Shown: piece by piece, positions 37,198 to 50,009 of the stretch
How positions within the stretch are numbered: position 1 is the first letter of the stretch
Layout: the number at the start of each line of letters is the position of its first letter
Assembly: GCF_947494755.1 (NCBI RefSeq)
Contig: NZ_CANLVZ010000008.1
Coordinates: 50,739-114,738 of the forward strand
Direction of reading: 5' to 3'
Length of the DNA stretch: 64,000 bases
DNA from: an uncultured Tateyamaria sp.
Lineage (GTDB): Bacteria > Pseudomonadota > Alphaproteobacteria > Rhodobacterales > Rhodobacteraceae
Notes under the pieces: generated by a model
What the model was told of the DNA's origin: nothing
Databases searched by the model: none
The model's input: the letters and a program-made list of their open reading frames with translations, nothing else
Position numbers and translations under genes: made by a program

Positions 37198-38016
37198 TTA
37201 GTCGCCGAGTTTCTTGTGCACTTCCTCAAGATCAATCTCGCCGGTTGGCATCTTGTTGCTGGGGTCTTCAAAGTCATATTTGAATAGGTCGAAATCGCGC
37301 TTGAAGATTTCATAGACGAGATGCATCGACAGATCGTCAAAGTAGTCTTCGACCGGATGAGCCCGCTTGGGACCATGCCCCTCACTTTCATTAAAACGAG
37401 GAATGTCGGCGATGTTCACGCTATGCGGCGTCTCGATGGCGGACATGACATCCTCCATGCCCTCATTGAACTTTTCGGTCCAGATGATCTTGTCATAGCG
37501 CCCACCGTTCACAATGAACGTCGACACATGCCCGGACATGGCCGACCAGTGAATGTCAGGCTCCATTGGGCGACGCCAGCGGATGGTGTCACGGGCAAAC
37601 AGCAGGAACCGGCGGAAGGACTTGACCTGATCGAATTCCTGCTTGCCATCGTCCCCGCCCACTTCGATCCCGTATTTCTGGATCAAGAGCGGGACGAGGT
37701 TGCCCCGATACCGTTTGCCGTTGCGCTGGATGCCGCAAATCTTGTCGAAGAAGGAACTGAGGATGCGCGTGTAAGGATTGCGCACGCAGGTGAACGAGTA
37801 GCTTTCATGGGCCTTTACGTTTTCGGTAATGATCGGCTGACTCTGCTCGAGCGCCCATTTGTGCATGCCACCCTTGGCGTCGTGAATATCACCGTCAAAG
37901 AACTCACCATGATCCGAATAATACATGATCTGGCCGATGGTCGAGCAGGCGCATTTGGGCACCACGCGGTACACCACGCTCTCGCTCTCCGTCATCCAAG
38001 TGCCGGGAAATCCCAT
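37198..38016 (-). CDS. Sulfotransferase family 2-like (carbohydrate sulfotransferase type)
   Basis: Only the C-terminal 272 aa of the 612-aa track ORF make sense (ATG at 38016 or 37995). PAPS 5'-phosphosulfate-binding-like VVPKCACST and 3'-phosphate-binding-like VRNPYTRILSSF. G+C is about 49 per 100 nt by hand count at 37201-37300. Confidence 0.7.
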   Translation of the reverse strand: MGFPGTWMTESESVVYRVVPKCACSTIGQIMYYSDHGEFFDGDIHDAKGGMHKWALEQSQPIITENVKAHESYSFTCVRNPYTRILSSFFDKICGIQRNGKRYRGNLVPLLIQKYGIEVGGDDGKQEFDQVKSFRRFLLFARDTIRWRRPMEPDIHWSAMSGHVSTFIVNGGRYDKIIWTEKFNEGMEDVMSAIETPHSVNIADIPRFNESEGHGPKRAHPVEDYFDDLSMHLVYEIFKRDFDLFKYDFEDPSNKMPTGEIDLEEVHKKLGD

Positions 38017-38157: not shown

Positions 38158-39735
38158 ATGGCAAAAATCGCCTACATACTTCTGTGTCACAAGGACCCGG
38201 ACGCCATCATCAAACAGGCGGAACGATTGACGACAGCTGGCGATTACATGTCGATCCACTTCGACGCGCGCTCTGACAGCGCCCAATTTGCCAAAATCCA
38301 CGCCGCTCTCAAAGACAACGCCAACGTCACCTTTGCCCACCGTCGTATCCGATGTGGCTGGGGGGAGTGGAGCCTCGTGCAAGCCACCCTTTATGCCGTC
38401 GAAAGCGCAGTTGAGGCGTTCCCGCGCGCCACCCATTTTTACATGCTGTCGGGCGACTGCATGGCGATCAAGTCTGCCGAATACACCCATCGTTTCCTCG
38501 ACGACAACGACGCCGACTTTATCGAAAGCTTCGATTATTTCGAAAGCGACTGGATCAAGACCGGGATGAAGGAAGAGCGGCTGATCTATCGCCATTTCTT
38601 CAACGAGCGCACGCAAAAGCGCCGGTTTTACGCGGCCTTCAACGCCCAACGACGCCTCGGCCTGACCCGCGACATCCCGGCGGACATTCAGGTCCAGATC
38701 GGCAGCCAGTGGTGGTGTCTGCGCCGACGCACCATCGAATGGGTGCTGGAATTCACCCGCCAGCGCCGCGACGTGATGCGGTTTTTCCGCAGCACCTGGA
38801 TCCCGGATGAGACTTTCTTTCAGACCGTCGTGCGCCATGTGGTGCCCGAAGACGAAATTCGCACCCGCACCCTGACCTTTTTGCTGTTCACGGATTATGG
38901 GATGCCGGTCACGTTCTACGATGATCACTATGACCTGCTGCTCAGCCAGGACTTTCTGTTCGCCCGCAAGATCAGTGCCGAAAGCCATGACCTCAAGCGG
39001 CGCCTCGGTCTGCTCTATGCGGCCGAGAATGTCCAATTCCAGGTTTCGAACGAAGGGGCGAGCCTGTTCAAGTTTCTAACCGGACGGGGTCGGATCGGGC
39101 GCCGTTTTGCCACGCGTTTCTGGGAAACCGAAAGCACCTTGGGCCGAAATCGCGAGTTGCTGGTGATCATTTGCAAGAAATGGCACGTCGCAAAACGCCT
39201 GCTCGAACAGATCCGGCAGGTCACGAATGTGCCCGCGATGGAATATGTCTTTAACGAAGAGCATACCCCTCTGCCTGATCTGGGCGGCATTCAAAAGACG
39301 CTCGAAAAACGCACGCGGCACCGGCGGGCCTTGATGCGGATGTTGTTCGACTATTACGAAACCGACCGCCTGATCGTCTGCATGGACCCAAGCAACCTCG
39401 ATCTGTTGCAGGATTTCGCAGGCGACCGGTCCATTACACGCATGCTCGAAATCCAGTGCGACTTTAGCGATGACTACCTTGTGGGACACGCCATGCGCGT
39501 CGGTCTGGCGGGCGAACAGACCTCGCAAGAAACGCTTGAGCGGCTGTTGCCAACGATCCGCAACGACATGGTGTTTGAATCCGACCGGATCCGTGATGCC
39601 GATTTCGAACACTTCGACCGCATCCGCGAAACCGCCGATATCGAGGACAACACCAAAGCCCTCGCGAATTTTCTCACCATGTCCGACGACAAGGCGCGCG
39701 AAGTTGCATCCGCCGATTATCTGTTTTCAGACTGA
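38158..39735 (+). CDS. Glycosyltransferase family 14 (core-2/I-branching type) N-domain fused to an uncharacterised about 250-aa C-domain
   Basis: 525 aa. KIAYILLCHKDPD, YMLSGDCMAIKS and GSQWWCLRR fit my memory of the Branch/GT14 pattern. I cannot assign the C-terminal half (possibly a DUF). Confidence 0.6.
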   Translation: MAKIAYILLCHKDPDAIIKQAERLTTAGDYMSIHFDARSDSAQFAKIHAALKDNANVTFAHRRIRCGWGEWSLVQATLYAVESAVEAFPRATHFYMLSGDCMAIKSAEYTHRFLDDNDADFIESFDYFESDWIKTGMKEERLIYRHFFNERTQKRRFYAAFNAQRRLGLTRDIPADIQVQIGSQWWCLRRRTIEWVLEFTRQRRDVMRFFRSTWIPDETFFQTVVRHVVPEDEIRTRTLTFLLFTDYGMPVTFYDDHYDLLLSQDFLFARKISAESHDLKRRLGLLYAAENVQFQVSNEGASLFKFLTGRGRIGRRFATRFWETESTLGRNRELLVIICKKWHVAKRLLEQIRQVTNVPAMEYVFNEEHTPLPDLGGIQKTLEKRTRHRRALMRMLFDYYETDRLIVCMDPSNLDLLQDFAGDRSITRMLEIQCDFSDDYLVGHAMRVGLAGEQTSQETLERLLPTIRNDMVFESDRIRDADFEHFDRIRETADIEDNTKALANFLTMSDDKAREVASADYLFSD

Positions 39736-40948: not shown

Positions 40949-41596
40949 TCACTTGGATTGCCACGTCCCCAACCAGCGACGGAACCGACCGCGCCGGTCC
41001 TGAACCGCGTCTCCTGCGGCCTCCCAACTGTCCTGCAATTCCTCGATCTTTGGGTCGATCCGTGCGCGACGGAACCGACGCCAGCGCACCCAAATCCCAT
41101 AGAACAGGGCGGCCAGCAGGGTCAGCACAATGATGTTCACCCATGGGATACCCTTGGACGCATCAGGCCCTTCGACCTCACGGATCGAAATCGCATTGGG
41201 AAACACCGTCAGGAATTCGTTGCGCCACCCGTAATGGGTGATGACGTACCATTCCGGGGCCGCGCGGGTCGAAATCGCATCGTTGGCCTCCGTATAGAGG
41301 TTGGCCGTGTCGAATTTGAAATAGGGCGGCCAGCTCCAGCCCGTGTCTTCGTTGCGATAGACGATGGGTTTGCCGTTGGCCCGAACCGCTTGCAGGAACT
41401 GGACGTCTCGGTTGACCAGCGTGTCGGATTGTTCATCCGGGCGCGACCAGAACATGCGGGTCCAGTCGCTCAGGTCTTGGCGTTCCTCATAGGTGTTCAC
41501 AAAGCGCACGATGTCGCGTTGCGGCAGCGTGTAGTGCAGGAACGCCCCCAACCCGACCCAGAAAATGATCAGCAAAGTCCAACCGATATAGCGCAT
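40949..41596 (-). CDS. DUF1523-like membrane protein (last gene of the nine-gene operon)
   Basis: ATG at 41596 (the track start at 41608 is TTG). N-terminal and C-terminal TM helices flank an about 150-aa domain. The family name is from memory. Confidence 0.55.
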   Translation of the reverse strand: MRYIGWTLLIIFWVGLGAFLHYTLPQRDIVRFVNTYEERQDLSDWTRMFWSRPDEQSDTLVNRDVQFLQAVRANGKPIVYRNEDTGWSWPPYFKFDTANLYTEANDAISTRAAPEWYVITHYGWRNEFLTVFPNAISIREVEGPDASKGIPWVNIIVLTLLAALFYGIWVRWRRFRRARIDPKIEELQDSWEAAGDAVQDRRGRFRRWLGTWQSK

Positions 41597-41608
41597 CAAG
41601 GTCCCCAA

Positions 41609-41872
41609 TCAGGCAAAGTTCACGAGATAGATGGTAAGGCACACCAGCGCCATAGGCACGATATAAACCCCCCAGATCAGTTTACGACGCAGCGACCCGT
41701 CGTAGTCCTGCAGACCTTCGCGCACGAAAGCATCGCGCGGCATGGTCTTGTCGCTTTCGTCCCATTCGCCCTCCAACCGGGCGCGTGCCCGCGCTCGCGA
41801 ATACAGCGACAGGCTGAGGTAAACGATGCTGAGCACCACAAAGGCGATAAAAAACAATCGGATCAAAGCCAT
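41609..41872 (-). CDS. Small 2-TM membrane protein (87 aa)
   Basis: Strong RBS GAGGAGG inside the end of the upstream gene, 3-nt gap. Two hydrophobic helices separated by a charged loop. Confidence 0.5.
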   Translation of the reverse strand: MALIRLFFIAFVVLSIVYLSLSLYSRARARARLEGEWDESDKTMPRDAFVREGLQDYDGSLRRKLIWGVYIVPMALVCLTIYLVNFA

Positions 41873-41875
41873 ATC

Positions 41876-43210
41876 TTACCTCCTCACAGCGCCCCACGGC
41901 CCGACACGTTCGATCAGATCCCGGGGTTTTGGTTGCGGTTCCGTCAAGGGCGCGTCGTGGCCGAACAGGGCTTCGCGCGCACCCGCTTTGTCGGCCTTGT
42001 ACTCGGCTTCGAGATAGCGCGCGACATATTCCTTCTGCCGCTCGGGCCACGTGGCATAGGCCGCGTAAAATGCCTGTTTGTGACAGATGAACAGCTGGCG
42101 CACATCAAGGGGCGACAGTTCCGACAGCAACATATTCACCAGCGCATGATCCGGCGTATCGGCCGCCCGCAATGTGTAGAAATAGGCCGGGTGGTCCGAC
42201 GAAATGCGCGGCCATGACCCGCCGTTCTCCGCCCAGTTCACCAGTGCGGCCAACCCATGAAACGCCTCCGGCAACAGATCCGAGTGCCGCCGCGCCAACA
42301 TCCGCATATCGCGCCGCGTGGTGCCTGCCAGATCAACGCCCGCTGCCGTCACGGCTGCAACAAGGATGAAGTCCATCTTCTGACGCAGGATCGCGGCCCC
42401 GTCGATGCCGCGCGCCTTGACCACAGGTTCGACCAGGTCATTGAACTCGAGGAACTTGGCGATCCGGTTCCGCTCGGTCAGATCGAACGTGTATTTGGTG
42501 GGCAAATCGTCAGGCTTATCCCCGACTGCAATGGTGGCCGGGTGATCAACCGACTGGAACACATAAAGCCCACCGAAATGCGCCGTCCAGAAATTGCCCT
42601 GCTCGACCTTCAGCGGTTTCAACTGCACAGGATTGCGCGTCACATCCCCGGTTTGGCCTGCAAGCGTGATCATCTCGCCGATCAGAACATCGTCAAACCA
42701 CGCATCCTCTTGGGTCAGAAACGTGTCGACCTTGGCCGCAAGGTCAGCCGCATTGCGCACCGTGCCCATGGTCGTATCCGCCTCGACCGTGATGGCGCGA
42801 ATGTCGAACAGCCGCTTGGGGTCCTTCAGATCATAGATCGAATTAATCAACTCCCCGGCCACTGCATCGCGGGCCGTAAGCGCAAACAAGGCCGCCTCGT
42901 TTTCCGCAATAAACCGTTGCAGGATCGGCAGCGAGGTCGAGAATTTGGCATCCAGCAACGGGCAATTGCGCTGCTCCGTGCTTAGTAGGATGAACTGTCG
43001 ATTGACCCCATTGTGGTTGAGGTAGAGCGGGTCGTTGAGGTCATTGCCCACCTCGGGCGAGAAGCCAGAGATGTCGATGTAGAAATCAGTGAGTGTCGTG
43101 GTTTGCCCAGTCAGATGCTTGAGCGCACGGTTATAGCGGTCGACCAGCGCGGGCGAGGCGACATGGAAGAGGTTGCCGTACATGAGACCAGATTGGATGA
43201 GGCGGATCAT
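41876..43210 (-). CDS. Hypothetical 444-aa soluble protein, no family recognised
   Basis: Long ORF with codon usage like its neighbours. ATGA overlap with the upstream small gene. Confidence 0.6.
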   Translation of the reverse strand: MIRLIQSGLMYGNLFHVASPALVDRYNRALKHLTGQTTTLTDFYIDISGFSPEVGNDLNDPLYLNHNGVNRQFILLSTEQRNCPLLDAKFSTSLPILQRFIAENEAALFALTARDAVAGELINSIYDLKDPKRLFDIRAITVEADTTMGTVRNAADLAAKVDTFLTQEDAWFDDVLIGEMITLAGQTGDVTRNPVQLKPLKVEQGNFWTAHFGGLYVFQSVDHPATIAVGDKPDDLPTKYTFDLTERNRIAKFLEFNDLVEPVVKARGIDGAAILRQKMDFILVAAVTAAGVDLAGTTRRDMRMLARRHSDLLPEAFHGLAALVNWAENGGSWPRISSDHPAYFYTLRAADTPDHALVNMLLSELSPLDVRQLFICHKQAFYAAYATWPERQKEYVARYLEAEYKADKAGAREALFGHDAPLTEPQPKPRDLIERVGPWGAVRR

Positions 43211-43503
43211 GATGCGGCCCTGCCCAACCTAAAAATCAGTGCCGCGGCCAGTGCAATCGCCGGAACCGCGAAGGCCCGATAGCTGATCTGTAAATTGAAC
43301 CCGATATACGCCACCCACGACCCGTTAAAGAGCAAGAGAGAGTCCTCAATCGACTCCCCGGCAAAGCCTGTCGCGGCATTGATCGTGACCTGCACCACGA
43401 ACAAAACCAACGCGCCGCTCAGAAAGCCAAGGACGCCCCAGTGCAACGGCAATACACAACCCAACACCAGCGCCAAAGCAGATATCCATAGCACCAGCAT
43501 CAT
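43207..43503 (-). CDS. Small 3-TM membrane protein (98 aa)
   Basis: Start trimmed to MMLVLWISALALVLG (the longer track ORF overlaps the ATPase gene). ATGA overlap with the downstream gene. Confidence 0.45.
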   Translation of the reverse strand: MMLVLWISALALVLGCVLPLHWGVLGFLSGALVLFVVQVTINAATGFAGESIEDSLLLFNGSWVAYIGFNLQISYRAFAVPAIALAAALIFRLGRAAS

Positions 43504-43537
43504 GGTAAATACCGCTCGTTGACATGCGGCTCGGCGC

Positions 43538-45472
43538 TCACGTCTTACTCTCCAACCACCGTTTCTTCGCCGCTTCCTGCCGCCCGAAGTCGCGCACCAT
43601 TGCCTCCACGGCCACCTCATCCGACTTGTCCGCATAGCGGAATTCGCTGTCGGCGTAGCGGTTGATTTCCTGCACCACCATGTCGACCGTGATGGGCACG
43701 CGCAGCTCTGAAATCATCGACTTCTTGGTGTCGTAGTCGTGGAACAGGAACAACTCGGGGTCCTCCATCCACTCATCGGGCAGCTCAAAATCCATCGCCC
43801 GGACCTTGACCGCATCGGTGATATTCTTGATCGCACGGCCCGTGAACCGGTCATCCGCTTCCTGAATCGCCTTTAGGTAAGTGCCCAGTTTCGCAATCGT
43901 ATCCAGCGCGCCCACCTGCGCATCGACCCGGTCAAACACCTCCATCAACCCCGGTTCGTGCGGGCGGGAATGAGACTCGAAACTGGCGGCGACGGCTTTC
44001 TTGATTTCTTGCGCTGAAAACACCTCATGCGCGCCAAGCGGGATGTCGTGGTTCTTGCCCATCAACAGATAGAGGATGTCGATGTAGTCCTCGCGCGTCT
44101 GCGGCCCATCCACCAGAAACCGCGCCCCGGCCCGCTGGCGCAGCGCATCGTCAACATTCTCAGGGTAGTTCGAGAACATGCCAAAGGTGCAGTTGCCGCG
44201 CACGACGGTGTTGGCCCCGGCAAAGCTTTCCATCAGTACGGCGGTGATTTCGAGTTGCCCGGCGCTGGATTGCCGGTCGCCCCGCTTGCCCGCCAATTGG
44301 TCGATATCGTCGATGGTGCCAAAGCCGATCACGGACGGATCAAGCACATTGTTGATGAACGCCTTGGCGTTCTGACCCGACTTGCCCTGATAGCTGTCGA
44401 TGTTGTCGGTAGAGAGGTTCTGATAGCGAAACGGATAGCCTGCGACCTGACAATAATCATTCAGCAGCCCTGCCATCATCTGGATCAGCGTCGTCTTGCC
44501 CGTGCCCGGTTTGCCATCGCCCATGAAGGTAAAGATAAACCCGCCCAGTTCTGCAAACGGGTTTAGACGGCGATCAAAGTCGTAAGCCATCAACATCTTG
44601 GCCAGTTTCATGGCCTGATATTTGGCGATGTGGTTGCCCACGACCTCATGCGGCTTCTTGAAGGTCATGGTCAGGGTGGAGGACTTCGCCTTGGACGCCG
44701 GCGAGAACCCCTGAACCGTGAAATCATCCGCCTCGACATGCCAGCTTGCATTCAGGAATGCCTCAAGCCGAGGGGCGTTCTGCGCGCGCAAGGCAACCTT
44801 TTCCATCAACGCCTCGGCATAGGCAGCCACACAGGCCACCAGATGCACGTCGTCCGGCGCATAGGTCTGAATGTTGCGGTCAAGTTCCCACAAGGCCCCA
44901 TGCAGGGCGGTTTGGCCATTGTCGGTCAACACCTCTTCGACCTCGCCCACCTCTACGACTGTTTCCGACTGATGCGCAGACAGAAGGTACGCGGTCGCAT
45001 TGGCAAAAACGTAAAGGGTGATCAACGCCTCTGCCGCCAGTAGTTCGGCAAACTCAGCCTTGCGCGCGGCGGGCAAAGCCCCCTCAAGATTGGCGCGCTT
45101 GAGGTCCCCCAACCCAGACACGGCCGCGTAATTCTCGGCCACAGCCAGCGCGATCGACACCGCCCGGCGCAGCGCATTCAAAACCGTCGCCTGCATCGGT
45201 GAGACCAGCGCATCGTCATCATCCGCCCCTTCGATTGTGGCCATCAACTGCACTGCACCTGTGGGCACGGACCGGCGGGTCACAAGGCCCGGGGTGGTCG
45301 TGCGAAATCGACGGCGGGTTCCGATGCCGGACGACCGCTCGGGCGCTGCTGCAACCTCGGCCTTGCCGATCCGCGGCGCGTGGTCAAACCCCTGCAACAG
45401 CGCCAGAGCCACCGGGTAATGCGCGACAATCTCGGCCTCACGCAACTCCATCTGATCCGACGTCTGGCTCAT
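43538..45472 (-). CDS. AAA+ ATPase, classical AAA clade, with about 330-aa unknown N-terminal domain
   Basis: ATG at 45472 preceded by GAGGGA. Walker A GKPGTGKTT, Walker B IGFGTIDDID, second-region-of-homology-like SNYPENVDDALRQRAGARF. Confidence 0.8.
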   Translation of the reverse strand: MSQTSDQMELREAEIVAHYPVALALLQGFDHAPRIGKAEVAAAPERSSGIGTRRRFRTTTPGLVTRRSVPTGAVQLMATIEGADDDDALVSPMQATVLNALRRAVSIALAVAENYAAVSGLGDLKRANLEGALPAARKAEFAELLAAEALITLYVFANATAYLLSAHQSETVVEVGEVEEVLTDNGQTALHGALWELDRNIQTYAPDDVHLVACVAAYAEALMEKVALRAQNAPRLEAFLNASWHVEADDFTVQGFSPASKAKSSTLTMTFKKPHEVVGNHIAKYQAMKLAKMLMAYDFDRRLNPFAELGGFIFTFMGDGKPGTGKTTLIQMMAGLLNDYCQVAGYPFRYQNLSTDNIDSYQGKSGQNAKAFINNVLDPSVIGFGTIDDIDQLAGKRGDRQSSAGQLEITAVLMESFAGANTVVRGNCTFGMFSNYPENVDDALRQRAGARFLVDGPQTREDYIDILYLLMGKNHDIPLGAHEVFSAQEIKKAVAASFESHSRPHEPGLMEVFDRVDAQVGALDTIAKLGTYLKAIQEADDRFTGRAIKNITDAVKVRAMDFELPDEWMEDPELFLFHDYDTKKSMISELRVPITVDMVVQEINRYADSEFRYADKSDEVAVEAMVRDFGRQEAAKKRWLESKT

Positions 45473-45541
45473 CTCTGTCCCTCTTTCATTGTTCTTCAAA
45501 TACTCCCGCCGGAGGCTCTACAGCCCGGCGCGCGCATCCGT

Positions 45542-46660
45542 TCAATACCGCAACACTCGGCCCGTCGGGCTGACCACAAACTTGCGCACCGACGCAAATC
45601 CCGGTGGCCCCATTTCCTCAAGCGCCTGATAGACCCGGGCGGGCAACACGATGCTGCGCTCCATCCGGGTGGCGCCGGTTTCCGCGCCCCGCCCCGCAAA
45701 CGGATCCAGCGCGAACACCTGCCGCTCAACAGACGAAAACCAGCCCGACCGTTCGGTCATCACCCGTTCGGAGCGTAAATCCTCTTCGGTCCAGACCAGC
45801 GACCAATCCTGCCCTTCCGGCGCGCGCGCCGCCTCAAGCACTTGCGAAATCGGCCCCGACTGCTTGGTGAAGGCCGAGGAATACATCGGCCCCACATGAA
45901 ACCGGCGCAGCCGCTTGGGGTGCAGGTCGTCAAAATCCTCGTCAAAGCCTTTGGCAATTGTCACCAGTTTCAACCCGCCGAGTGCCTGCGCCATCAAATG
46001 CGCCTGCGCTTCGGGCCAGCGGCGCTGATCCTTGGGCAAGGCGGTGCGCCCGGTGTCCTCGACATCCATCATGTAGATCACGGGCAGGTTGACCTGACTG
46101 TCATAGACCGCCCAGTGCAGGCGGAACGTGCGCCTTTCTTCGGTGAGATTGCCCGTCCAGACCGCCTGTGGATCATTGCGCGGCCAGAACAACTGCCCAC
46201 GCAGCAACTCTTCGTAATAGAGCCGCTGCGACATCGCGAATTGCAGCTTGGTTGGCACCACCCGTTCGCCGACAATCACTTCGACCATCTGTTTTTTCAG
46301 CTCGTGCGCCGAGGGCATGCCCGCCAGATGGCGCTCGGCCTGTTGGGTGTCGCTGGCCATCGTGATGATCTCGTCCGCGGCCGGAAAGCCGCTCTCGTGC
46401 GCGTCAATGGAAAGCGAGCCAAAGAACCGGCCTGTATCCCGCCCCACCAGCAGGTATTTCAGGGATAGGGCGCGAAAAGTGAACGTCAGTTCGGTGATAT
46501 AGCGGGTCAGGATCTTGACCTCGGCCCGGTCCAGATTGCCGTCGGCCTCCATGACTCCGGCGACACGACCCAGATGCGAGATGATCGTCTCGAACTTGCG
46601 GAAATAGCGGCGCGAGGCGAAGAGATCCGTGAGGCCTATGGTCTCGGATTGTGTCAACAT
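45542..46660 (-). CDS. Hypothetical 372-aa soluble protein, no family recognised
   Basis: Long ORF in operon context. The start overlaps the upstream small ORF by 7 nt. Confidence 0.6.
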   Translation of the reverse strand: MLTQSETIGLTDLFASRRYFRKFETIISHLGRVAGVMEADGNLDRAEVKILTRYITELTFTFRALSLKYLLVGRDTGRFFGSLSIDAHESGFPAADEIITMASDTQQAERHLAGMPSAHELKKQMVEVIVGERVVPTKLQFAMSQRLYYEELLRGQLFWPRNDPQAVWTGNLTEERRTFRLHWAVYDSQVNLPVIYMMDVEDTGRTALPKDQRRWPEAQAHLMAQALGGLKLVTIAKGFDEDFDDLHPKRLRRFHVGPMYSSAFTKQSGPISQVLEAARAPEGQDWSLVWTEEDLRSERVMTERSGWFSSVERQVFALDPFAGRGAETGATRMERSIVLPARVYQALEEMGPPGFASVRKFVVSPTGRVLRY

Positions 46661-46914
46661 CCCCCACCACTATCACCGCCGGTCGATCCACCGCCACCAG
46701 CCCAAAACTGTTGGCCACTTCGGTCAGCTTCAACATTTGATGCGCCGAGCCAAACCAAGGCAAACAACGTCAACGCAATGCCCGGCAGATAGCCCCACCA
46801 TGGCGCCTCGAAAAAATGGGTGCCGAAGAGTGCGAGCAGTGCACCGGCCAGAAACAGCACCCGCCGCAACATTTGACGTCCAGGACTAGCTTGTTTGGAT
46901 CGTGACAGCGTCAT
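46654..46914 (-). CDS. Small 2-TM membrane protein with Gly-rich tail (86 aa)
   Basis: The start abuts the stop of the preceding 48-aa ORF, and GGAGG/AAGGG lie upstream. Two hydrophobic helices, then ...WAGGGGSTGGDSGGGC. Confidence 0.4.
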   Translation of the reverse strand: MTLSRSKQASPGRQMLRRVLFLAGALLALFGTHFFEAPWWGYLPGIALTLFALVWLGASNVEADRSGQQFWAGGGGSTGGDSGGGC

Positions 46915-47061
46915 TCAGCCCTTGCGCCTCCGGCTGAGCAGAAACAACCCCGCAATCCCGGCCACCAGCCCCACGCCGTTCACCCACAAGGGCGCGCCGA
47001 AGGCCATCGACCCCACAAGGCATAACACTGAAACCGCGACACAGATCAGGCCGAGTTTCAT
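46915..47061 (-). CDS. Small 2-TM membrane protein (48 aa), not in the supplied ORF track
   Basis: My translation is MKLGLICVAVSVLCLVGSMAFGAPLWVNGVGLVAGIAGLFLLSRRRKG. GGAGG lies 7 nt upstream of the ATG. 3-nt gap from the upstream stop. Confidence 0.4.
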   Translation of the reverse strand: MKLGLICVAVSVLCLVGSMAFGAPLWVNGVGLVAGIAGLFLLSRRRKG

Positions 47062-47064
47062 GGC

Positions 47065-48141
47065 CTAACCTCCATACGCATTGCTGTCGTGTTTCTCGAC
47101 AATCTGCGCGAACCGGCGGGCAAAGCGTTCGTCGGCCTTGGCCTTTTGCTCCAGGACATCACGGGCGAACACCATGTGATCCTCGTGCGCCTCAAGCATG
47201 TCGGCCATCCGTTTGTTGGTCGCCGCACCAATCCCGGCCATAGCCGTTTGCGCCTCCTGATCCGTCTGCACGCCGATCTCGTTGATGCGGTGAGCGACGT
47301 CCTGCTGCTGCGCGGTTTTCAACGATTTGGTGAGGGCGTCATAGAGCACCACGCGTTGCTTCGTGTCCGTCTGCAACTTGTTGATCAGCACCATCTGGGT
47401 CGCCGCCTGATTCTGTAACGAGTCGATCCAGGTTTTGCCCTTTTCGATGTAGCGTTCCAGCGTTTGGGACTTGGCGAGCTTAACCTGTTCGTCCTGCACC
47501 ATCTGGTTATAAGCGCTGTTCATCTCTGCCAGCTCAGTCTCGAGTGCTGTGCGTTTGGCCGCATCGGTTTCGGAAGCGATCTGGTTTTCCAGCGTGATGA
47601 TCTTGGGGTCCATTCCTTGTATTTCACCTTGCAGGGCCGCAAGTTCCTGCACCGTCATTTCACGCTCATCCAGTGTTTCAGTCAGGTTGCCCTCAACCTT
47701 GACCTTCTGCTCTTCGAGCATGGTCAACTGGCCTTGCAGCAGCTGCACGATCACGTCGGATTTCGAAATCAGGTCCTGCAACTTGTCGTCAATCGAGGCA
47801 GTGCGCACGCGCTCTTGGCGCATGCTGTCGGACTTGGCCTTGGAGAATATCCCAATGAAGGACTCCATCCCCGTCTTGTTGCGCATTTCGTCAAAGTCTT
47901 TGGAAAAGGCCGCAGTGACGTCATCAAGGCCCATGATCAGCTCGGCGATATTGGCGTTCATCACGTCCGTATGGGCGTGCACGTCATCCAAGGTCGCATT
48001 TTCGATGTCGATGGCGATATCGTCGCCCGATTTCATCTTGGACCGCGCCACCTCGATCCGGCTGGTCAGTTCGGCAATCTTGGTTTGCGCCTCGGCCACC
48101 TGCGCTTGGGACTCGCGCACCTGACTGTCAAAATCGGCCAT
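47065..48141 (-). CDS. 358-aa all-helical coiled-coil protein (first gene of the operon); TelA-like architecture possible
   Basis: Only the part from MADFDSQVRESQ (ATG at 48141, RBS GAGGGGAG) is coding-like. The upstream part of the 524-aa track ORF is antisense to tetR. Heptad-rich, Glu/Gln/Leu-rich. Confidence 0.65.
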   Translation of the reverse strand: MADFDSQVRESQAQVAEAQTKIAELTSRIEVARSKMKSGDDIAIDIENATLDDVHAHTDVMNANIAELIMGLDDVTAAFSKDFDEMRNKTGMESFIGIFSKAKSDSMRQERVRTASIDDKLQDLISKSDVIVQLLQGQLTMLEEQKVKVEGNLTETLDEREMTVQELAALQGEIQGMDPKIITLENQIASETDAAKRTALETELAEMNSAYNQMVQDEQVKLAKSQTLERYIEKGKTWIDSLQNQAATQMVLINKLQTDTKQRVVLYDALTKSLKTAQQQDVAHRINEIGVQTDQEAQTAMAGIGAATNKRMADMLEAHEDHMVFARDVLEQKAKADERFARRFAQIVEKHDSNAYGG

Positions 48142-48301
48142 AAAATTCTCCCCTCGTATCAATGTGTTGAGAAACATATAGGCAATGTAACACGCATTTA
48201 CATCATCTACTGTCCCGAATTCCTCCAAACTGTTGCAAAACCATCCCGAGAAATAAAGCGCCAAGCCGGGGTTTTCGTCTCTCGCCTGCGGCTGTATGGC
48301 T

Positions 48302-48314
48302 TGAACGCGGTTCA
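48302..48314. promoter_or_regulatory. Operator-like dyad TGAAC-GCG-GTTCA upstream of tetR
   Basis: Perfect 5+5 inverted repeat 14 nt upstream of the tetR ATG, inside the divergent intergenic region. Confidence 0.6.
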
Positions 48315-48327
48315 CACAGGGGCAAAC

Positions 48328-48933
48328 ATGGGATCCAAGGTCGAAGAACGTCGCAGCGCCTTGCGCGATACGTTGATCAACGTTGCCGAAGCTCAGATCG
48401 AGGCAGACGGGCTGGCCGCGATCAAAGCGCGAGGCCTGGCCGAAGCGGCGGGGTGTTCGGTGGGGGCCATCTACAACGTCTTTGACGACCTCGAAGATAT
48501 CATAATCGCGGTGAACGGCCGCACATTCGGCAAGCTGGGCCAACATGTGGCAACCGCCTTGCAAGGCAAAGAGGAGTTGCCCGCGACGGACCGGTTGATC
48601 GAAATGTCTTATGCGTATCTGGATTATGCGGTGACCCATCCACGGCTATGGCGGGCCCTGTTTGATCTGCGCATGTCGACGGATATGGACGTGCCGGATT
48701 GGTACCTGGCCGAGTTGGGGCAGTTGTTCGACTACATCGATGGCCCCGTCCGCGAATGCTTTGCGACATTGGACGACAGCGAGGTGCGATTGATGACACG
48801 GGCGCTGTTTTCATCAATCCACGGGATCGTCATGCTTGGCCTTGAAAACCGGATCAGCGGCGTGCCGCGCGACCAGATCCACCGCATGATCGCAATGATG
48901 CTGCGTTCTGCAACTGGAAACACAGTGTTTTGA
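48328..48933 (+). CDS. TetR/AcrR family transcriptional regulator
   Basis: 201 aa from MGSKVEERRSALRD. HTH ARGLAEAAGCSVGAIYNVF. Confidence 0.85.
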   Translation: MGSKVEERRSALRDTLINVAEAQIEADGLAAIKARGLAEAAGCSVGAIYNVFDDLEDIIIAVNGRTFGKLGQHVATALQGKEELPATDRLIEMSYAYLDYAVTHPRLWRALFDLRMSTDMDVPDWYLAELGQLFDYIDGPVRECFATLDDSEVRLMTRALFSSIHGIVMLGLENRISGVPRDQIHRMIAMMLRSATGNTVF

Positions 48934-48943
48934 ACATTGTTCA
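48931..48943. promoter_or_regulatory. Operator-like dyad TGAAC-ATT-GTTCA
   Basis: Perfect dyad. Extends to TTGAACATTGTTCAA. Overlaps the tetR TGA stop. Confidence 0.6.
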
Positions 48944-48953
48944 ACTTTTTTCT

Positions 48954-48966
48954 TGAACGGCGTTCA
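48954..48966. promoter_or_regulatory. Operator-like dyad TGAAC-GGC-GTTCA
   Basis: Perfect dyad. Extends to CTTGAACGGCGTTCAAG. Confidence 0.6.
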
Positions 48967-48987
48967 AGTTTGTCCTATCTCATTTCG

Positions 48988-49000
48988 TGAACGATGTTCA
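48988..49000. promoter_or_regulatory. Operator-like dyad TGAAC-GAT-GTTCA
   Basis: Perfect dyad ending 15 nt upstream of the pspA ATG, next to the RBS. Confidence 0.6.
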
Positions 49001-49015
49001 TGAAAGGGAAACGCC

Positions 49016-49687
49016 ATGTTATCTACGTTCCGAACACTCTTTGCCGGGGCAAATGCCCGCGCCGAAGACCGTGTGCGCGATGTCTATGCCATCGAGCTTA
49101 TCGACCAGAAAATCCGTGAGACCGAAGGGCAGGTTCACGCCGCCAAAGCCACGCTTGCCAGCCTGATCCAACGGCGCAGATCAGAGCAAAAGCTGCTGGA
49201 TATGTTGCGCACCCGGATCGCGACGTTGACCGAGCGGGCACAAGCTGCCATCGCGGCCGGACGCGAGGAGCTTGCCCACGAGGCCGCCAGCGCCGTTGCG
49301 GAAATGGAAAACGAGAGCCTTGTCCGGCAGGGCACGATTGACAGGCTGGACACTCAAACCACCCGTTTGCGCAGTTCCGTTGAGCGTGGCCATCGCAAGG
49401 TCATCGACCTTAAGCAAGGGGCATTGCAGGCCCGCGCCATGCGCCGCGAACAATCCATGCAATCGCAACTGCACACCACGGTCCAAGGGCAGTCCGCAGC
49501 AGATGAAGCGCAGGAGTTGATTGACCGCGTCGTGGGCAAGGATGACCCGCTCGAGCAGTCCCAAATCCTTGCGGACATCAACGCAGGTCTGGATCACACC
49601 GGGCTTGAGGATCGCATGGCGGAGGCCGGCTTTGGCCCCTCGACCAAGGTGACAGCGCGCGACGTACTGGACCGTTTGACCAAGTAA
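49016..49687 (+). CDS. pspA: PspA/IM30 family protein
   Basis: 223-aa helical protein. The N-terminal amphipathic MLSTFRTLFAGANARAEDRV and the overall layout parallel PspA. Confidence 0.8.
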   Translation: MLSTFRTLFAGANARAEDRVRDVYAIELIDQKIRETEGQVHAAKATLASLIQRRRSEQKLLDMLRTRIATLTERAQAAIAAGREELAHEAASAVAEMENESLVRQGTIDRLDTQTTRLRSSVERGHRKVIDLKQGALQARAMRREQSMQSQLHTTVQGQSAADEAQELIDRVVGKDDPLEQSQILADINAGLDHTGLEDRMAEAGFGPSTKVTARDVLDRLTK

Positions 49688-49721
49688 CACGACTTCAAAA
49701 CCATCAAAGAGGAATACACCA

Positions 49722-50009
49722 ATGCACAACGATAAATCCGACAACACCACGATCATGATGTTCAATCTGGCAGGCGTTGTTGCCGCCTATGCGCTGCTTG
49801 CCCTGTCCTTGTACCTGTCCACCGACGTGCCGCTTTCGACCAAGGGGTTTTGGGGCATCGGCATCCTGATGCTGACGCTGAGTCTTGTGAACTTTGTCAA
49901 ATACCGCTTCGACAATCAGCAACGCATCGACCGGATCAACCGGATCGAAGAGGCCCGAAACGAAAAGCTGCTTGAAGACTACGTGGGCGAGGTCAAAGAC
50001 ATCGCCTGA
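49722..50009 (+). CDS. YiaA/YiaB-type two-helix inner membrane protein
   Basis: 95 aa, RBS AGAGGAA. The LSTKGFWGIGILMLTLSLVNFVKYRFD pattern resembles the YiaAB repeat. Confidence 0.6.
   Translation: MHNDKSDNTTIMMFNLAGVVAAYALLALSLYLSTDVPLSTKGFWGIGILMLTLSLVNFVKYRFDNQQRIDRINRIEEARNEKLLEDYVGEVKDIA

Follow-up and report, generated by a model that had tools for sequence, protein, structure and literature searches.

A AAA+ ATPase operon of an uncultured Tateyamaria with a conserved four-gene core and variable junction genes

Layout and distribution of the operon

The DNA analysed here, referred to as the window, is a stretch of 64,000 nucleotides (nt) from an uncultured Tateyamaria sp. (contig NZ_CANLVZ010000008.1, positions 50,739 to 114,738 of the forward strand), and the subject of this report is an operon of nine genes, g1 to g9, which run head to tail on its minus strand from 48141 to 40949. 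The names of the closest homologues likewise point to Tateyamaria, of the family Roseobacteraceae. An earlier interpretation made from the letters of the window, here called the sequence-only reading, had described this array, and all nine open reading frames (ORFs), their junctions and their ribosome-binding sites were confirmed at the coordinates it gave. Four of the genes encode core components 1 to 4, namely g1 (47065-48141), an all-helical protein of 358 amino acids (aa); g4 (45542-46660), a soluble protein of 372 aa; g5 (43538-45472), a classical-clade AAA+ ATPase of 644 aa; and g7 (41876-43210), a 444-aa protein of the DUF6638 family. A variable slot between g1 and g4 holds g2 (46915-47061), which encodes a small membrane protein of 48 aa, and g3 (46654-46914), whose 86-aa product has two transmembrane (TM) segments and a glycine-rich tail, and a second variable slot, between g5 and g7, holds g6 (43207-43503), encoding a 98-aa protein with three TM segments. 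The last two genes are g8 (41609-41872), for an 87-aa protein with two TM segments, and that of its partner g9 (40949-41596), a 215-aa DUF1523 protein composed of a TM segment, a domain of about 120 aa, a second TM segment and a basic tail. A hydropathy scan located TM-like segments in g2, g3, g6, g8 and g9 and found none in g1, g4, g5 or g7.

From g1 to g9 the successive junctions measure +3, 0, -7, +69, +34, -4, +3 and +12 nt; they include an ATGA overlap of g6 and g7 at 43207-43210 and an abutment of stop and start codons between g2 and g3 at 46914/46915, and the ribosome-binding sequences GAGGAGG and GGAGG precede g8 and g2, respectively. The tight junctions, together with a gene order that recurs far beyond chance, support the proposal of a single coupled operon, and a scan for internal promoters and terminators gave signals that were not above the level in shuffled sequence. 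What did not survive is the notion of a fixed nine-gene unit, since the core accounts for only four of the genes, with two more making up a separable membrane module and the other three filling variable slots. The nine ORFs are thus a real operon built of three layers: a conserved core, a lineage-specific membrane module, and fast-changing junction genes.

Conservation of gene order beyond close relatives was one of the points on which the sequence-only reading had staked its operon, and the core order g1-g4-AAA-g7 is kept in Roseobacteraceae, Rhizobiaceae, Vibrio, Bacteroidota, Patescibacteria, Trueperaceae, and Opitutaceae/Pelagicoccus of the Verrucomicrobiota. By homology and gene position, then, a four-protein core stands in the same order across at least six bacterial phyla. 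The ATPase family comprises 190 clusters (50% identity, E<1e-30), mostly of full-length proteins of about 650 aa whose identity to g5 is only 25-35%. One genome per species was scanned with an alignment of distant ATPase members as the query; the pattern used matched about 100 species among 185,579, and the 80 loci returned are from Flavobacteriaceae and other Bacteroidota, several lineages of Patescibacteria, Trueperaceae, Opitutaceae/Pelagicoccus, and some gammaproteobacterial metagenome-assembled genomes (MAGs). In tblastn searches, 62 of 81 loci had a g4 homologue directly ahead of the ATPase gene, and 75 of 81 had a g7 homologue downstream of it. Combined with clustering of ORFs, these searches delineated a fixed order of six genes in the species-scan loci, encoding a helical g1 homologue of about 450 aa, a g4 homologue of about 365 aa, the ATPase, a DUF6638 protein of about 420 aa, and two further proteins, C4 (about 175 aa) and C5 (about 550 aa).

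A metagenome scan with intermediate ATPase queries added 80 further loci, and those that extend far enough are mostly of the Roseobacter type, in which g1 is followed by optional small TM ORFs, g4, the ATPase gene, a variable slot, g7, g8, and the DUF1523 gene. This order recurs in Sulfitobacter, Phaeobacter and Thalassococcus, and on about 50 metagenomic contigs. Two other arrangements came from chromosomes that are evidently mislabelled as plasmids in a plasmid collection: in Sinorhizobium meliloti (Ak57, L165, a 3.7-Mb record labelled pSymB) g1, g4, the ATPase gene and g7 are followed by a gene for a DUF2333 protein, and in Vibrio parahaemolyticus (L166) only the four soluble core genes are found, followed by mfd. 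Local profile searches confirmed all four core families in both the Sinorhizobium and Vibrio loci. The Vibrio core is flanked by two genes for DUF3592 membrane proteins (1740-2249 and 14616-15182 of L166) and by several hypothetical genes. No relatives were found in viral contigs and phage genomes, and a DNA-level search of Escherichia coli genomes gave no match. On these comparisons the core has spread among many phyla, and the family is rare and patchy in its distribution, as accessory systems are.

Within the Roseobacter group, Sulfitobacter donghicola, Phaeobacter and Thalassococcus carry the operon at the chromosomal site where it lies in the window. In the three genera it is flanked on one side by genes for an aldehyde dehydrogenase together with a hydrolase and/or an M24 peptidase, and on the other by a gene for a Branch/DUF5928 glycosyltransferase.

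The membrane partners differ by lineage, being g8 and DUF1523 in the window, DUF2333 in Sinorhizobium, and C4 and C5 in Bacteroidota and Patescibacteria. The description of g9 as DUF1523-like proved correct, with PF07509 matched over 176 of 176 profile positions (E 3.8e-68), and g8 is conserved beside g9 in Roseobacter-type loci. In Paracoccus a g8 homologue (93 aa) and a DUF1523 gene stand alone as a pair, apart from any AAA+ operon, and DUF1523 is likewise found without this operon on Pseudomonas and Pasteurella replicons; by this distribution g8 and g9 are a separable module with an independent existence. The pair in Paracoccus ferrooxidans (L167, 4709-5660) lies beside deoC. C4 is a protein with three TM segments, and C5 has the same number at its N-terminus, ahead of a large C-terminal domain; neither has a Pfam or PDB match. 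Comparisons with hhalign of C5 with DUF1523, and of C4 with g6, g8 and g3, detected no relation, and the membrane modules are therefore not detectably homologous. By the positive-inside rule, at least DUF1523 and C5 appear to place a domain outside the membrane.

The core proteins and the upstream region

The assignment of g5 to the classical AAA+ proteins stood: PF00004 covers residues 320-453 (E 6.6e-12; 46.4 bits against a cut-off of 21.2), and its best sequence matches in the PDB, all of them weak, are YME1, fidgetin-like 1, Vps4 and katanin. The Walker A motif of g5 is GKPGTGKT, and all 146 homologues fit the pattern G.{1,2}G.GK[ST], with GxPGTGK[ST] in every variant listed. A pore loop of YQG or FQG is present in 146 of 146 homologues and a sensor-1 [ST]N in 145 of 146, and the second region of homology (SRH) has a conserved arginine. 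The Walker B motif ends in DD in all 146 and never in DE, in the forms TIDDID, TVDDID, PIDDAE, PIDDGE or PADDAE. On its domain and motifs, g5 is thus a classical-clade AAA+ ATPase. PF00004 is its sole Pfam match, so that no MIT or Vps4_C domain was found, nor was any protease or TM element. Its conserved N-terminal part begins near residue 75-95 and aligns only within its own family, which is characterized by a helical N-domain of about 250 aa and an insertion ahead of the lid. Compared with FtsH/YME1 and the meiotic-clade proteins (fidgetin-like, katanin and spastin), which provide the best matches to the ATPase core and share its layout of Walker A, pore loop, sensor-1 and SRH, g5 differs in having no protease domain or TM segment, and in its own N-domain, pre-lid insertion and DD Walker B.

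Of the two large proteins that had been left unassigned, g4 still matches no family, and g7 was found to belong to one that had been missed. The g4 family has no Pfam or PDB sequence match, and searches of individual members against Pfam at E<=1 showed no recurrent weak family. The AlphaFold model of g4 (predicted local distance difference test, pLDDT, 87.6; predicted TM-score 0.87) is confident and shows a bundle of helices at the N-terminus and, after it, a large antiparallel sheet with helices, for which Foldseek found no counterpart in the PDB (best E 0.36, TM-score <0.2) or in BFVD (TM-score ~0.1); as modelled, g4 is apparently a new fold. The product of g7 matches PF20343 (DUF6638) over 439 of 439 profile positions (E 2.3e-225), as do 41 of 41 members from across the phyla, and nothing beyond DUF6638 was found for its family in Pfam (E<=1, per member) or in a profile search of the PDB. 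There was no mention of DUF6638 in the literature searched, and mentions of DUF1523 and DUF2333 were incidental. A scan of all nine products against NCBIfam gave nothing useful, and the statement that no product apart from the AAA module can be tied to a characterised function holds: beyond the ATPase domain, neither the core proteins nor their membrane partners match a characterised family or a solved fold.

For a helical protein, g1 is conserved to an unusual degree: its identity across Roseobacter genera is 85-94% and long stretches are invariant, which is on a par with the flanking aldehyde dehydrogenase and as expected of a protein with many interfaces. Its homologues in other phyla, of about 450 aa and encoded upstream of the g4 homologues, align with g1 residues 100-357. 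No Pfam match was found for g1. Toxic-anion resistance protein TelA was considered as an identity for g1 and rejected, as neither g1 nor 38 family members matched Pfam TelA at E<=0.01.

Upstream of g1 lies a perfect inverted repeat, ATGTAA-N7-TTACAT (48185-48203, minus strand; 44-62 nt upstream of the start codon), which is operator-like and occurs once in the window against an expectation of 0.06. It is found once at the equivalent place upstream of the g1 homologue in about 20 Roseobacter-type loci, including genera that have no tetR and pspA genes next to the operon. Directly downstream of the repeat is a -10-like sequence, CCTATAT (48176-48182, minus strand), which has the conserved form CC[CT]AT[AC]T when upstream regions are aligned and is a putative promoter element. 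The repeat looks like an operator placed over this promoter for a dedicated regulator encoded elsewhere, through which the operon may be repressed. A second palindrome, GTTTTGCAA(A/C)AC (48232-48241, minus strand), about 90-100 nt upstream of g1, is partly conserved, with a perfect copy in Sulfitobacter (L001) and degenerate ones in several further loci, and could be an additional regulatory site. A sigma-54 reading of an upstream TTTGCAA element was rejected because its spacing does not fit a sigma-54 promoter.

For the S. meliloti locus, SMc02733 is presumably the ATPase gene or a neighbour of it, judging from the locus numbering near shmR and choX. An in vitro DNA-binding screen recovered a ChvI-bound fragment within SMc02733 (PMC3687685).

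Variable junctions and their cargo

The genes in the variable slots are fast-changing. A homologue of g2 was found in only one other locus, the g1|g4 junction elsewhere holding unrelated small TM ORFs or nothing, and g3, which is unrelated to C4, was not found in Sulfitobacter by tblastn. Following its two TM segments, g3 ends in the glycine-rich sequence GGGGSTGGDSGGGC. The product of g6 is 47% identical in Sulfitobacter and is one of the small proteins with 3-4 TM segments, of several unrelated families, that usually occupy the ATPase|g7 junction of Roseobacter-type loci.

In about 10 Roseobacter-type loci this junction also holds a gene for a soluble protein: Mrr (three loci), TIR_2, PIN_10, RiboL-PSP HEPN, RNase_T or DUF433. 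Comparable insertions are found in other lineages. In S. meliloti (L165, 10079-11824) a DUF559 endonuclease gene and an ISRm16 transposase gene separate the ATPase and DUF6638 genes, and a complete type II restriction-modification pair lies between the ATPase gene and g7 in one MAG. All 13 of 13 Polaribacter loci have a NUDIX gene, sometimes accompanied by one for an RDD membrane protein, between the ATPase gene and g7. In Polaribacter and other Flavobacteriales, a MazEF-like pair is found between g1 and g4, and a 23S-IVP/bAvd-like gene between g4 and the ATPase gene. A complete type XIII retron (WGR, SWIM and RT) is placed between g7 and C4 in two Polaribacter loci (L015, 13698-20118; L034, 13799-20222; PADLOC E 1e-292 to 1e-177), and GIY-YIG, PD-(D/E)XK and IS200 genes are also present inside Bacteroidota operons. 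The ATPase|g7 slot therefore appears to be a recurrent landing site for immune-type genes, the products of which are not proven subunits, and the pattern of its contents is reminiscent of defence loci, both in effector repertoire and in the clustering of genes. The scan for defence families used PADLOC-DB v2.0.0, which covers systems described up to 2023, and for g1 it returned weak, probably compositional matches to LmuB (4e-4) and REase_II (2e-3).

Possible roles of the operon

The reading favoured here, and held tentatively, is that g1, g4 and g7 form an assembly at the membrane which the AAA+ ring remodels, in an inducible response either to damage of the envelope or to invading elements. 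In such a scheme g5 would form a ring whose conserved [YF]QG pore loop engages the substrate, the ring would remodel or disassemble an assembly made by g1 together with g4 and g7, and the membrane partners would hold this assembly at the membrane. A dedicated regulator sitting on the inverted repeat would silence the operon until a stress signal turns it on. A response to damage of the envelope or to invaders is the most likely role because immune-type genes have repeatedly lodged in the operon. Within the libraries searched, the operon would be a new kind of system, one that in its working may at most resemble Vps4/ESCRT-III or another AAA+ remodelling pair, and the gene set is not mentioned in the literature searched.

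Several observations weigh against this reading. No homology ties any component other than the ATPase to a function, and PADLOC gave only weak, generic AAA hits for g5 (TRIP13, 2e-5; IetA, 3e-3). The catalytic Walker B glutamate is replaced by aspartate family-wide, so that g5, instead of being a processive unfoldase, may hydrolyse ATP slowly or act like a switch. Membrane tethering is not universal, as Vibrio has the four core genes and no dedicated membrane partner. The slot proteins share no common region that could serve for docking or as an adaptor, and the slot is empty in many loci, from which it follows that the cargo may only be hitch-hiking. Furthermore, synteny is kept and conservation is strong across Roseobacter genera, which is atypical of defence systems, and viral contigs and phage genomes yielded no relatives.

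Were the operon a remodelling machine, it would provide a new set of substrates and adaptors for classical AAA+ proteins and a natural DD variant of Walker B, and were it an immune system, its architecture, with an effector slot built in, would be new. Whichever applies, the conserved operator, fixed gene order and variable slot offer direct experimental handles. The core, with such membrane partners as each lineage has, is present in model or tractable bacteria (S. meliloti, V. parahaemolyticus, and relatives of Phaeobacter and Ruegeria) as well as in genome-reduced Patescibacteria.

The defence, envelope-machine and PspA/ESCRT alternatives to this reading overlap in mechanism and differ mainly in biological role. 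That the operon is a dedicated anti-phage or conflict system, in which the core senses infection and the gene in the ATPase|g7 slot, or the terminal membrane proteins, kill or arrest the cell, is possible if doubtful. The slot contents mirror abortive-infection effectors (small TM proteins, NUDIX, Mrr or another restriction endonuclease, PIN, HEPN, TIR, exonuclease), the operon contains whole defence systems (a type XIII retron and type II restriction-modification) as well as a toxin-antitoxin pair, its occurrence among the phyla is rare and patchy, and all components are novel. However, besides lacking a shared docking region, several of the slot proteins are autonomous enzymes, such as a full-length Mrr with Mrr_N; many loci have no slot gene at all; no PADLOC model matches beyond the AAA domain; and stable synteny with very high identity across Roseobacter genera is not what this alternative would predict. 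A parallel may be sought in defence operons that host other defence genes, such as type I restriction-modification loci and the P2 and P4 hotspots, the latter of which reportedly hold defence genes between conserved genes. In both cases conserved genes bracket a variable slot, and the cargo is shared in kind (Mrr, TIR, HEPN, PIN, restriction-modification, retron and toxin-antitoxin genes), but the framework genes described here are not phage or satellite genes, belong to no PADLOC family, and are vertically inherited at a fixed site in Roseobacteraceae. A related and similarly speculative proposal is that the operon represents a new class of membrane-anchored AAA+ immune or damage-response system, the core of which, with at least one new fold and a DD Walker B ATPase among its four proteins, would sense an envelope breach or infection and control interchangeable slot-encoded effectors (TM proteins, NUDIX, nucleases, TIR), and which would have spread horizontally over at least six phyla, including Patescibacteria.

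It is unlikely that the operon encodes a housekeeping or stress machine of the envelope, acting in extraction or quality control of membrane proteins, membrane repair or export across the inner membrane, with the immune-type genes as passengers. The membrane partners are always encoded last in the operon, at its 3' end, and the inferred topology suggests that at least DUF1523 and C5 are extracytoplasmic; the ChvI-bound fragment in SMc02733 is a tentative lead in the same direction; in Roseobacteraceae the operon is inherited vertically at a fixed locus and its conservation equals that of central enzymes, all of which would suit such a machine. The family is nevertheless too rare for a general envelope function, the three sets of membrane partners are unrelated and Vibrio has none, the repeated capture of immune genes at one junction is left unexplained, and the link to ChvI rests on an in vitro screen and an unconfirmed gene mapping.

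The sequence-only reading had taken a different course, suggesting a membrane-remodelling or envelope-stress machine partly from the genes next to the operon, which lie divergently at 48328-50009 on the plus strand and comprise tetR, pspA (PspA/IM30, PF04012, E 1e-13), and a gene for a 95-aa protein with no Pfam match. This block, tetR and pspA included, is absent from the syntenic site in Sulfitobacter, Phaeobacter and Thalassococcus, and pspA adjoins the operon in only one metagenomic locus of this type, L144. Because the syntenic sites of other genera are without it, and it recurs only in L144, tetR-pspA is an insertion of the Tateyamaria lineage between the operon and the M24 peptidase gene. 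It is therefore uninformative on the function of the operon, and the argument drawn from ESCRT and PspA loses its basis, removing a link that was tempting but unfounded.

The g1 protein itself gives little encouragement to a PspA-linked remodelling system of the ESCRT-III/Vps4 kind, with g1 as the polymer and g5 as the Vps4 analogue, and we consider this very improbable. Several features invite the comparison, as in archaeal CdvABC and eukaryotic ESCRT a classical AAA+ protein is likewise encoded beside an all-helical protein in a membrane context, Vps4 is among the weak PDB matches of g5, the g1 model includes a long helical hairpin, and pspA is divergent beside the operon in the window and in L144. 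However, the g1 family profile had no significant match among PDB sequences, with no PspA, Vipp1 or CHMP chain recovered; hhalign gave a probability of 0.4% for the g1 family against the PspA of the window; and the PspA and Snf7 models of Pfam matched none of 39 g1-family members. The AlphaFold model of g1, made from a shallow alignment, has a pLDDT of 53.7 and is confident only for the long hairpin of residues 106-275. With this low-confidence query, Foldseek returned Vipp1 at E 0.05 (TM-score 0.25-0.39, root-mean-square deviation >25 A), which is no better than the matches to hairpins of SMC, chemoreceptors and CT398 and to generic coiled coils. In contrast to Vps4, g5 lacks MIT and Vps4_C domains and has DD rather than DE in Walker B, and ESCRT has nothing that corresponds to g4 and DUF6638, the two other obligatory proteins. 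The likeness to the Psp system (PspA/IM30, PspF, PspB and PspC) similarly goes no further than the divergent pspA gene and the presence of membrane proteins, as pspA is absent from beside the operon in nearly all metagenomic loci and no PspB, PspC or PspF is present. The AAA+ partners described in a published survey of the genes around pspA are different ones, and none has this composition (PMC11237479). The role of the operon is most probably not a Psp or ESCRT function; of the membrane-remodelling idea, association with the membrane remains plausible, and its PspA/ESCRT foundation is gone.

Least credible, along with the PspA/ESCRT proposal, is the alternative that there is no functional unity, the four-gene core and g8-g9 being merely adjacent and the small ORFs not genes, which would account for the poor conservation of g2 and g3 and for the lone g8-DUF1523 pair of Paracoccus and lone DUF1523 of Pseudomonas and Pasteurella, but not for g8 and g9 following g7 at gaps of 3 and 12 nt, here and in most Roseobacter-type loci that cover this region, for internal promoter and terminator signals no higher than chance, or for a membrane module of some kind at the same terminal position in each major lineage.

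On the strand opposite the operon are long ORFs of up to 489 aa (47464-48933 and 40958-42217, both plus strand, and others), which are by-products of the high G+C content and overlap real genes; the true tetR is confined to the last 200 codons of the 489-aa ORF. Past the other end of the operon, the window has the gene for the Branch (core-2/I-branching glycosyltransferase) and DUF5928 protein at 38158-39735 on the plus strand and a sulfotransferase-like gene at 37198-38000 on the minus strand. Both adjoin the operon in all three of the other Roseobacter genomes (Sulfitobacter, Phaeobacter and Thalassococcus), a linkage that may reflect synteny only.

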